Of a DNA stretch of 64,000 bases, positions 29,401-30,720 are shown in pieces (position 1 is the first letter of the stretch; every line of letters begins with the position of its first letter). The stretch is from Trypanosoma brucei (taxonomy: Eukaryota): positions 2,272,001-2,336,000 of the forward strand of contig CP000071.1 in assembly GCA_000002445.1 (NCBI GenBank), in the 5' to 3' direction. Under the pieces are notes generated by a model. That model saw only the letters and a list, made by a program, of their open reading frames with translations. It was not told where the DNA came from and did no database searches. The position numbers and the translations under genes were made by a program.

Positions 29401-30259
29401 TCGTGAGTTTGAGCGGCAGCGTGCGGAAGATGATGGGGATTATGTTCCACCCACTGGCCATCTTGACCCTGATGTTTACAGTCGGTTGTGGAATGGACTG
29501 CGAGTGCGTGTTGGAATTCACACCGGGTTGTGTGATATTCGGCATGATGAAGTGACGAAAGGATATGACTTTTACGGTCGTACATCGAATATGGCAGCAC
29601 GGACTGAGAGCATTGCTAATGGCGGGCAGGTGCTGTTGACACGTCCGACATACCTTTCATTGAGTGCTTCGGAGCGTGAGCAATTAAATGTGACTGCATT
29701 GGGTGATGTGCCATTGCGTGGTGTACCCAAACCTGTGGAGATGTACCAATTGAATGCGGTACCCGGAAGGACATTTACTACACTGCGACTTGACCATGAG
29801 GTTGCTGATGACGAAGATACGAGTGTTTCTTGCAGTGATGGGAGTTCCATTGGTGCAGTTCTCAGTGATGCCGCTTATCAGGTTGTTGCTTGCGTTGAAG
29901 CACTACTTGGTGCATTCCCCACTGCGCAGCGTAAGAAATTACTTATGCCATTTTGTAACCGATGGGGAGTTTCGTTACCTTATAATGTTTCTGATACGTG
30001 GGATGCAACCACGTGCCGTAATGTTACTCGCCTGCTTGCCGCGAGGGTTGGTCGTGTTGTGGATTTTGGGACGAAGAATACTCATGACAGTGTACAATTC
30101 TCTGAAAGACGCTCGGGAACTTTTCCGTCCAGGTTAGCTGCCGCTGTTGATCTTGTAAGCATCCCTTCAACTTCTACCTGTATTCAATCCAGCTGCAGTA
30201 TTATATATATGAATGTGCCAGATGATGATGATACCAGCAAATATTCCCCTAAGCATTGA
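26489..30259 (+). CDS. GRESAG4: receptor-type adenylate cyclase (ESAG4/GRESAG4 family), copy 1
   Basis: ORF 26363..30259. The likely start is the ATG at 26489 (MASFMRLVTPLGAAVACSHLLMVVLPLLLLIPGLCA = signal peptide). Large extracellular domain, one TM helix (FIGTIVGTILCLIALVLIVMLM), then a class III cyclase domain with hallmark motifs LIFTDIESSTAQW, YEVKTVGDSFMIACKSPF, GLRVRVGIHTG, YDFYGRTSNMAARTES. C-terminal tail type 1 (…IIYMNVPDDDDTSKYSPKH). Confidence 0.92.
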   Translation: MASFMRLVTPLGAAVACSHLLMVVLPLLLLIPGLCADKDCNSSSVTVRVYNLLYSSDISKTTYEPVIAGFNASLHAHNDDLPANVCIEVEHVHARSDEDYVSYLKNKIDGDAAVQNKSELPIVLGPVGDETTLHLTRELEKFEIVAFSPFTGSSDVRVWKKSLYFLTASPIAQVLALIRYAVSQLRLQRLGFMYLKGVSFGDKEYKLTLKVMSIMGRKLCGVFELDSSTDGRASDDDFEAAWKRFAPTMPQGVIVFGSPIEDTKRFLMKFLGSNELRGAYILIPSMLQYVIINSWMKELAVKNFVPERVILTGPSPLANDNEYIAVRKFQTVMGKYLETNGKLNGHNYEKGHFYDHRTDGELMVHGWIVGEVLWRTLGSRESLKNRTTYINSLYNQRRYVIDDLVIGDFGGECEGKAGQRGAACKCNQGGNVVYMKRMGTDRNLHPVKEGVVTLASSRCYTNLLQLYAPLNGIMFRLEDNPLAQRITEEYRDGASLVVGKGQLGQGDRFFLHELNSTSSATKHNMLEEVKERVVTAVFGVVDDALLSMTDMTFIDPIPLSPRLKHPGRNALHLSPTIEQQIFVMVERVVVPNSWGSVHAIVRSSDARGIKSVLRKTFWALGGSLGAFDEVTDGESVKSLLPHSGFVLVIGLTEADITAIAEHLDNHREVRVFALFFDVALLYSEFVKVFKKHPQAAERLLFATSLPHWADNNTTSETVQEFHRDVGNESKWTPLALLGYATARAMESVVLQMGRVNSEELINTIFSQSVIVADDMWYGPFEDSCSNSRWSSAKDCIVNYGATHISVWSMARVLNPSVPPVRGVATPSIRYYKDGLNMTEEEFIGTIVGTILCLIALVLIVMLMRKCMRGDTRDNENAPRELTDPVTLIFTDIESSTAQWAAHPELMPDAVATHHRLIRTLISKYGCYEVKTVGDSFMIACKSPFAATQLACDMQRCFLEHDWKTDVFDTSYREFERQRAEDDGDYVPPTGHLDPDVYSRLWNGLRVRVGIHTGLCDIRHDEVTKGYDFYGRTSNMAARTESIANGGQVLLTRPTYLSLSASEREQLNVTALGDVPLRGVPKPVEMYQLNAVPGRTFTTLRLDHEVADDEDTSVSCSDGSSIGAVLSDAAYQVVACVEALLGAFPTAQRKKLLMPFCNRWGVSLPYNVSDTWDATTCRNVTRLLAARVGRVVDFGTKNTHDSVQFSERRSGTFPSRLAAAVDLVSIPSTSTCIQSSCSIIYMNVPDDDDTSKYSPKH

Positions 30260-30555
30260 AATATGTGTCCATTATTGCCAGAATAATTGGATAAGGTTCA
30301 ATACATGATCTGTGCATGTTTCTTGTTCGATATTGGATGTTTTCGATAATATTCTTTTTAGGTTATATTTTCCACTTCTATGTATGCGCAGCATCCTCCT
30401 CACATGTTGGGTGCTTTCCATATTCGTGTGTTCCGCTTAGCTAGTGATTAAAGCACTTATTGAAGCAAACCCACTTTTCGTTTGTTGTTATAAAGTGGGG
30501 GATGTACTTATTTTCTCCATACTCTCACTGTGTGAAGCGTTATTTTTCTTGTTTC

Positions 30556-30720
30556 CCACTTCCGGTGAGCGGGTGTCAGGCAAAATGCACTGACCTCCTA
30601 TATTAATGAAAATCGATGCATTCCCGTGCTGGACAGATAAGCCATCGTATTATTAACTTCTAATGTTGCTGTTGGTACAACATATCACTGTTGTTCACTT
30701 TGCTTTCCTTTACTATTATA
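30556..30720 (+). promoter_or_regulatory. conserved sequence blocks in the adenylate cyclase 3' spacer (candidate 3' UTR regulatory element), one representative
   Basis: The blocks ccggtgagcgggtgtcaggcaaaatgcactga and gtgctggacag-t-agcca-cgtattattaacttctaatgttgctgttggtacaacatatca-tgttgttcactttg-tttcctttactattat are retained in both spacer subtypes (A and B). The surrounding spacer sequence differs between subtypes. Confidence 0.35.

Follow-up and report, generated by a model that had tools for sequence, protein, structure and literature searches.

Two tail and spacer types in a receptor-type adenylate cyclase array of Trypanosoma brucei are probably old haplotypes of a repeat-bounded cassette

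INTRODUCTION

Trypanosoma brucei has about 80 receptor cyclase genes. The 64,000-nt stretch analysed here (GCA_000002445.1, contig CP000071.1, positions 2,272,001 to 2,336,000 of the forward strand; hereafter 'the window', whose coordinates are used unless stated otherwise) lies on chromosome 8 of strain TREU927 and contains the GRESAG4 tandem array Tb927.8.7860-7940, with 8 copies. According to an original prediction, these copies end in one of two C-terminal tails, A or B, each followed by its own type of 3' spacer. Our results suggest that the 'subtypes' are most probably two old haplotypes of a ∼570-bp cassette, comprising the last ∼50 codons, the stop codon and a proximal spacer with a non-homologous core, within an array that evolves in concert.

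Several described systems resemble this arrangement. For T. brucei arrays in general, the accessible part of PMC1855330 reports distinct untranslated region (UTR) types within one array, conversion tracts across stop codons and terminal copies that have diverged and whose flanks have been remodelled. The PGK array (PGKA/B/C), as cited in the accessible part of that paper, likewise has tandem copies, shaped by gene conversion, whose proteins differ at the C-terminal end and whose non-coding flanks differ as well, and it is the classic example of such differences yielding distinct isoforms; unlike the A and B types, which are known from sequence alone, the different locations of the PGK isoforms and their post-transcriptional stage regulation have been established experimentally. 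The THT1/THT2 hexose transporter array is similar in being a single array split spatially into two isoform blocks of near-identical copies, with conversion between them (PMC1855330, accessible part), but THT1 and THT2 differ throughout the coding region, whereas only a ∼570-bp 3' cassette is partitioned here. As in ACP1 and other flagellar cyclases, the A/B tail lies inside a variable region of ∼110 residues after the catalytic domain, which carries conserved phosphosites and, in some isoforms, a ∼45-residue targeting signal (PMC6027212). For ESAG4, deletion of the last 107-112 residues left flagellar targeting and CARP3 binding unchanged (PMC6027212, PMC9481589).

The locus itself has been described under the name 'Tb80a'. 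Jackson 2007 (PMC1855330 and supplement, accessible part) lists it with 8 copies at chr8 2302044-2340635, and Jackson et al. 2010 (PMC2854126) count 8 copies for T. b. brucei against 4 for T. b. gambiense, with a pairwise homoplasy index (PHI) p < 0.001 and 10-11 breakpoints. In the accessible parts of the two papers, concerted evolution, significant recombination tests and conversion tracts in coding sequence (CDS) and 3'UTR are reported for Tb80a, and its CDSs are said to be reciprocally monophyletic between subspecies. The same parts of their text and supplements do not describe for Tb80a the A/B cassette, the relic repeat R' introduced below, deletion or duplication by exchange between R and R', or the retention of both A and B in different subspecies.

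RESULTS

Tail and spacer types in the window

Modules of tail plus spacer were cut at a common in-frame anchor (DTWDATTC), all seven were aligned with MAFFT and distances were taken per segment (coordinates in Table 1). Three modules are of type A (M1, M2a and M2b) and four of type B (M3, M4, M6 and M7, after copies 3, 4, 6 and 7). Tail type and spacer type co-occur in all seven (3 A/A, 4 B/B, 0 mixed), in agreement with the original prediction; the association gives a Fisher p of 0.029, which overstates the evidence for linkage because the modules are related by recent duplication and are not independent. Copies 1 and 2 end in GTFPSRLAAAVDLVSIPSTSTCIQSSCSIIYMNVPDDDDTSKYSPKH and copy 3 in GTFPPGLVASVPEEGSLASTSTCIQSSCSVVYMMNGPDDDDTSKCSPKHCNMRPLLPE, each directly before the stop; the ends of copies 4 and 7 differ from that of copy 3 by a few substitutions each, and copy 6 has the variant RSSTSRPLLNAVSEECS followed, as had been noticed, by a B-type (B2) spacer. 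The C-termini quoted originally are exact for copies 1, 2, 3 and 6 and approximately right for copies 4 and 7. The peptide SRLAAAVDLVSIP is specific to A, and PGLVASVPEEGSLA and CNMCPLLPE are specific to B. Type A spacers had been assigned to copies 1 and 2 and seven spacers counted in all: the A assignment is confirmed, but there are two A modules after copy 2, both tail and spacer are missing from copy 5, and copy 8 leaves the window.

The segments of a module differ greatly in how far A and B have diverged. Tail blocks of the two types show 14-21% mismatch (dS, synonymous divergence, 0.42-0.48; dN, non-synonymous divergence, 0.17-0.18; dN/dS ∼0.4), against at most 2.1% within type A in the window, or 3.1% when the first T. 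b. gambiense copy is included. The proximal spacer that follows shows 3-14% mismatch between A and B and is not partitioned by type. In the divergent block beyond it, A and B differ by 42-50% mismatch plus 23-29 gap columns, while type A modules differ by at most 0.9%; between the cores at its start (134 nt in A, 153-159 nt in B) Smith-Waterman alignment scored at shuffle level, with no detectable similarity. The distal spacer is again nearly uniform, with 0.3-2.4% mismatch (97.6-99.7% identity) and no A/B partition.

The ∼250-bp segment proposed to distinguish type B measures 249-255 nt and does contain an AT-rich run and an inverted repeat. The run stands at the start of the block in copies 4 and 6 (e.g. 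46542-46576), and a perfect 9-bp inverted repeat, CCGGAGCAT/ATGCTCCGG, lies in the block of copy 3 at 41677-41708. The core of type B is not uniform, existing in three versions over its first ∼100 nt (M4/M6, M7 and M3). Inside the divergent block a 45-nt island is common to A and B; it folds as a small hairpin, GUCAG...CUGAC, the last pair of which is G-U in B. The C-terminal extension of B, CNM(C/R)PLLPE (9 residues), results from a single base, TGA in A being TGC or TGT in B, and the next 27 nt are almost identical in the two types.

Direct repeats around the cassette

The 3' anchor sequence of the CDS is found again 185 nt before each ATG, copy 1 excepted. It belongs to a CDS segment, R, which is repeated as a non-coding relic, R', in every inter-copy spacer, so that each tail-plus-spacer cassette lies between direct repeats, with 1,258-1,287 bp from R to R'. 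R' is absent upstream of copy 1 and in the paralogous chromosome 4 array. The distal spacer was considered as a decayed extension of the relic and rejected, because the local alignment score was at shuffle level; R' is thus a discrete 264-bp fragment and not part of a longer decayed gene.

Two junctions in the array carry hybrids of the repeats. The CDS of copy 5 runs through an R/R' hybrid (50860-51123) directly into the 5' region of copy 6, with the crossover mapping inside R, and the two cassettes that stand in a row after copy 2 are joined by an R'/R hybrid. Exchange between R and R' explains both the tail-less copy 5 and the doubled cassette. The second of the two cassettes is an orphan module and is probably the annotated pseudogene Tb927.8.7880, a mapping that would fit the listing of that gene as a pseudogene (PMC3957582). 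Smaller patches have been exchanged as well: the R of copy 3 has an R'-type CC..TTA patch, and that of copy 6 an R'-type GCG..CG patch which alters L to A and Y to R. The relic still trades patches with coding R, feeding amino-acid changes into copies 3-7.

Table 1. Features of the GRESAG4 array in the window
Feature	Position	Strand	Remarks
Type A modules	M1 29993-31250; M2a 34940-36197; M2b 36198-37455		
Tail block, type A, copy 1	30093..30286	+	TGA stop 30257-30259 and 27 nt translated in type B
Equivalent tail blocks	A: 35040-35233, 36298-36491; B: 41245-41444, 46214-46413, 54875-55068, 59845-60044		
Proximal spacer	30287..30414	+	128 bp; common to A, B and terminal type C; mosaic
Divergent block, type A	30415..30644	+	Non-homologous core 30415-30548, 45-nt island 30549-30593, ∼20% divergent rest
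Other type A divergent blocks	35362-35591, 36620-36849		
Divergent block, type B1, copy 3	41570..41824	+	Related block after copy 7: 60168-60416
Divergent block, type B2, copy 4	46542..46796	+	AT-rich run at start; near-identical block after copy 6: 55195-55449
Unique core sequences	A 30415-30548; B 41570-41728, 46542-46700, 60168-60320		
45-nt island	30549-30593, 41729-41773, 46701-46745, 55354-55398, 60321-60365		Common to A and B
Distal spacer, M1	30645-31032		
R, copy 1	29764..30027	+	264-bp CDS 3' segment, repeated in every inter-copy spacer
R, other copies	Starts near 34711, 40916, 45885, 50860, 59516; R6 ∼54549-54809		By offset from the R1 alignment; R6 is 3 nt shorter
R'	31022..31285	+	Non-coding relic of R, 93-96% identical; ends ∼150 nt before the next ATG
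Further R'	35970-36233 (R'/R hybrid), 37228-37490, 42202-42465, 47172-47435, 55827-56090, 60788-61051		
Orphan second type A tail and spacer module	36198..37455	+	After copy 2
Candidate trans-splice acceptor	30910..30982	+	Polypyrimidine tracts, then AG (30981-30982), upstream of R'; called from the sequence, use presumed
Second candidate acceptor	Polypyrimidine ∼31379-31399, AG at 31401	+	Called in the same way
GRESAG4 copy 1	26489..30259	+	Type A tail, TGA stop; open reading frame (ORF) list and translation; ∼2% divergent from copy 3
GRESAG4 copy 2	31436..35206	+	Type A tail; ORF and cluster membership
GRESAG4 copy 3	37641..41444	+	Type B tail, then B1 spacer; 100% identical to XP_847615; Pfam; transmembrane (TM) helix predicted at residues 845-863
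GRESAG4 copy 4	42616..46413	+	Type B tail, then B2 spacer; three N bases inside; translation, alignment
Copy 5, pseudogene	47586..51139	+	1-nt deletion near 48608 (G run); no tail, no spacer
GRESAG4 copy 6	51274..55068	+	B tail with RSSTSRPLLN variant, then B2 spacer; translation, alignment
GRESAG4 copy 7	56241..60044	+	Type B tail, then B1-like spacer; translation, alignment
Copy 8, terminal	61202..64000	+	Most divergent copy; runs past the window end

The array in other subspecies

The array of TREU927 was compared with its syntenic counterparts in T. b. gambiense DAL972 and in T. b. equiperdum OVI (a gap-free long-read assembly with no Ns). Eight copies in TREU927 correspond to three assembled in DAL972, for which four are annotated in the literature, and to three in T. 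b. equiperdum. In DAL972 an A cassette with a TGA stop, 96.9% identical to M1, follows the first copy (g1) and a B cassette the second (g2); in OVI two A cassettes follow the first copy (e1), the same duplication as after copy 2 of TREU927. The terminal copies of both arrays carry tails of a third type, C, which has a stop of its own. Where B is read through, a stop is present in A and in C alike. No relic copy of R was found after these terminal copies. The order of cassettes is the same in all three genomes: A lies upstream, at the edge of the array, followed by B in interior positions and by C in the terminal copy. The homology of internal spacers to the terminal flank in DAL972 and OVI stops at module position ∼431 (window ∼30423), right where the non-homologous A/B core starts.

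As A and B stand in the same order in DAL972 and OVI, the dimorphism is older than these lineages and not an assembly artefact. Collapsed or chimeric repeat assembly, or merging of diploid haplotypes, might have been suspected of creating apparent subtypes, given the N bases in copy 4, the 60-N gap upstream and the difficulty of assembling arrays from Sanger reads. However, the same cassettes recur in DAL972 and in the gap-free OVI assembly, the latter also with the doubled A cassette, which leaves an artefact exceedingly improbable.

The linkage of tail and spacer is strong but not absolute. Over 12 modules, the second tail half, the stop state and the core agree in 12/12 and the first tail half in 11/12. 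The exception is OVI copy e2, which encodes ...GTFPSRLAAAVDLVSIPSTSSCIQSSCSIIYMMNGPDDDDTSKCSPKHCNMCPLLPE, that is, the first half of an A tail and the second half of a B tail, followed by a B2 core and with the ORF intact; the junction lies inside the conserved STS(T/S)CIQSSCS island. The copy-6 tail variant is joined to a B2 core in TREU927 and to a B1-like core in DAL972, and free reassortment is seen for the 128-bp proximal spacer and for an SFD/FSE motif that immediately precedes the tail block. Independent assortment of tails and spacers, which would have spoken against the subtypes, is thus not seen for tail and core but is seen for the upstream motif, the proximal spacer, the B sub-variants and the OVI chimera. 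The second gambiense copy (DAL972 L001 18854-18997) has a 1-nt tail deletion that cuts the ORF after ...RRSSTSRPG, either a real pseudogenisation or a sequencing error.

Gene bodies

Outside the cassette the units differ by 1-3%, and the CDSs are mosaic. The 419 variable CDS columns lie in patches with mutually incompatible partitions (copy 4 only, copy 5 only, copies 4 and 6, and many for copy 8 only), and over 3,551 aligned CDS columns there are 2 fixed sites between A-linked and B-linked genes versus 12 between TREU927 and DAL972. Grouping is by genome for the 3' half of the CDS and for R' (tested for TREU927 versus DAL972), and by type for the A/B cassette. In CDS columns 1801-3553 the three DAL972 copies (g1-g3) are 0-0.3% apart through column 3000 and mostly 1-2% from the TREU927 copies; over the last 550 columns g3 is 1.2-1.5% from g1 and g2. 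Likeness within genomes, incompatible site partitions and copy-number change mark the array as one evolving in concert. Because the CDSs are mosaic, with 2 fixed sites and grouping by genome, the A/B difference is a local cassette in otherwise homogenised units. The suggestion that the array was built from two ancestral gene types therefore holds for the tail and proximal spacer, of which there are two old types, but not for the genes as wholes.

The first ∼600 nt of the CDS, encoding the N-terminal ectodomain (26489-27090 and equivalents in copies 4, 5, 6 and 8), are up to 13-17% variable, against ∼1% elsewhere, in copy-specific patches. Copy 8 differs by 8.4-9.7% from the other copies, with dense clustered patches (CDS alignment columns 984-1027, 1842-2040 and 2556-2709 among them), and looks like the product of conversion from a divergent donor or of long isolation at the array edge.

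One cassette or core might instead have been copied in from another GRESAG4/ESAG4 locus or a dispersed repeat, in which case A and B would not be an old polymorphism within the array. A tail dS of ∼0.45 is far above the divergence of the remaining unit, the cores are unalignable, and copies 4, 5, 6 and 8 show dense patches of the sort that conversion from divergent donors typically leaves. However, neither spacer type resembles the chromosome 4 array, the nearby single-copy chromosome 8 GRESAG4 or the terminal flank. A BLASTN search (word size 7) of A, B1 and B2 tail plus spacer and of the 5' region against the chromosome 4 array and the single-copy chromosome 8 GRESAG4 returned only a 46-nt match in conserved CDS before the tail; within the window BLASTN with word size 9 detected no other copy of the cores, and Smith-Waterman alignment to the terminal-copy flank scored at shuffle level. 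The cores have no Rfam match, both types occupy the same array positions in three subspecies, and ectopic conversion is described as very rare in these arrays in the accessible part of Jackson 2007 (PMC1855330). With no donor in the loci searched and conserved positions in three genomes, we consider import to be very unlikely.

Features bearing on function

Copy 3, which is annotated GRESAG 4, has an ectodomain with two periplasmic-binding-protein-like Pfam domains (Peripla_BP_A-cyclase; PF25495, E = 5e-56, and PF25493, E = 5.6e-141, residues 466-830), a hydrophobic 19-mer identified by hydropathy scan only (TIVGTILCLIALVLIVMLM) and a class III cyclase domain (Guanylate_cyc, PF00211, E = 9.1e-40, residues 879-1089), the 19-mer lying between PF25493 and PF00211. 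PF00211 is followed by about 178 residues, of which the A/B variable tail makes up the last ∼50; no match was returned when the final 147 residues of copy 3 were used in a protein search. The predicted architecture of the array members is that of receptor-type adenylate cyclases (ESAG4/GRESAG4), with an ectodomain, a single TM helix, a cyclase domain and a short variable tail. Both tails would be functional cytoplasmic C-termini, as suggested by a dN/dS of ∼0.4 and a frame kept in all intact copies, and phosphorylation or sub-flagellar targeting may not be the same for the two.

The two spacers could have different effects on how the mRNA is processed at its 3' end, how stable it is or how well it is translated, as the original suggestion of differing 3'UTR-linked regulation would have it. 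If the first strong polypyrimidine tract and AG are used as a trans-splice acceptor, the poly(A) site would fall downstream of the core; the end of terminal-flank homology at the start of the core leaves room for a shorter 3'UTR, which makes it uncertain that the core belongs to the mature 3'UTR. Each spacer has two candidate acceptor regions, and the upstream one, if used, would put the R' relic with its upstream ATGs in the 5'UTR of the next copy. Among known 3'UTR motifs (UAUUUUUU, UUGUACC, AUUUA, UAUUUAU and CAUAGAA) none separates A from B convincingly. RNA structure also fails to separate the types, because the three blocks all show mild structure (z = -2.0 to -2.5), with the best helix falling in the island common to A and B. 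Rfam gave no match in the whole window, and Tandem Repeats Finder detected nothing in the array.

The A and B cassettes might be kept by selection as functional sub-families, with the tail setting protein behaviour (sub-flagellar targeting, phosphorylation) and the linked 3'UTR setting stage-specific mRNA abundance or translation, as for PGK A/B/C and THT1/THT2. Both types persist in three subspecies while CDS bodies and R' (TREU927 versus DAL972) have been homogenised in each genome. The tails show the dN/dS given above and every indel between intact TREU927 tails is a multiple of 3, and the tail lies in the cyclase region with conserved phosphosites and, in some isoforms, a targeting signal (PMC6027212). 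The tagged product of an array member, Tb927.8.7920, was seen at the flagellar tip in procyclic forms, the tagging replacing the native 3'UTR, and the cluster is reportedly translated more efficiently in bloodstream forms (PMC7719234). However, the 9-codon extension is conserved equally where it is not translated, in types A and C, and thus gives no sign of constraint at the protein level. Equiperdum has a chimeric A/B tail whose ORF is intact, ESAG4 kept its flagellar targeting and CARP3 binding when its tail was removed (PMC6027212, PMC9481589), and the possible position of the core outside the mature mRNA, given where terminal-flank homology ends, weakens the 3'UTR part of the proposal. No known regulatory motif differs between the types, and the searchable papers naming Tb927.8.78xx/79xx contained incidental mentions only and no copy-resolved expression data that would discriminate A from B. 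As heterology alone suffices for persistence, separate sub-families appear unlikely.

Locus and flanking features

The eight tandem ORFs encode ∼1,260 residues each and begin at the ATGs given as starts in Table 1. The public protein for copy 1, XP_847613 (1298 aa), falls in the same 90% protein cluster as copy 1. Its start at 26363 is 42 codons upstream of the MASFMRL start of all other copies, and the intervening 26363-26488 crosses a polypyrimidine tract; this start is probably an over-extended annotation. The first DAL972 copy is annotated with a similar start. Copy 8 should be the last copy, with its tail ∼950 nt beyond the window, as judged from the published array end coordinate (PMC1855330). 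Single Ns fall in copy 4 at 44058, 44096 and 44263, and the 60-N gap is in an AT-rich intergenic region at 6563-6622. Upstream of the array, on the same strand (948-21810), are five unrelated ORFs, one of which has a cold-shock domain (2966-4480) and three of which have no Pfam match.

DISCUSSION

The two subtypes are best explained as old haplotypes of a cassette in an array that would be homogenised by unequal crossing-over and short-tract gene conversion. The cassette is flanked by R on the left and by the nearly invariant distal spacer and R' on the right, and exchange that starts in these homologous flanks would move, delete or duplicate it whole. Heterology within the cassette (14-21% in the tail, an unalignable core) would suppress internal exchange, and tail type would stay linked to spacer type for this reason. 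Units at the edge of the array would escape homogenisation, which matches the A-B-C order.

Several considerations weigh against this explanation. Only three genomes were compared; the CDS bodies of DAL972 and OVI are very similar, and the DAL972 array, which is gapped, is perhaps collapsed. Statistical support for the linkage is weak, as the modules do not count as independent samples. Neutral persistence and selective maintenance are not separable on these data, and a donor of the non-homologous cores was not found in the loci searched (the window, the chromosome 4 array, the single-copy chromosome 8 GRESAG4 and the terminal-copy flank). The copy 5 deletion and the copy 2 duplication are both present in one array, and they must therefore be two separate events or reflect non-reciprocal transfer, not both products of one crossover.

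A bolder possibility is that the R/R' repeats make a swappable cassette of tail and 3'UTR, with which the parasite re-pairs variable ectodomains with alternative tails and mRNA regulatory regions, A and B differing in stage expression or sub-flagellar placement and both being kept by selection. We regard this as improbable.

If the subtypes are old haplotypes, as we favour, the A/B cassette is what patchy gene conversion ordinarily produces in repeat arrays and no new kind of element; what is new here is a cassette bounded by R and R', together with its deletion, duplication and recombinant products. Annotation and quantification of the array must take into account that one tail module is an orphan, that one pseudogene lacks a tail and that every spacer holds a CDS relic. 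The unique sequences of the A and B cores (Table 1) permit copy-resolved read mapping in an array where reads otherwise map to multiple copies. Should genes with an A and genes with a B cassette be regulated or targeted differently on account of it, the array would constitute a compact natural experiment, in which near-identical enzymes are combined with two tails and two downstream regions.

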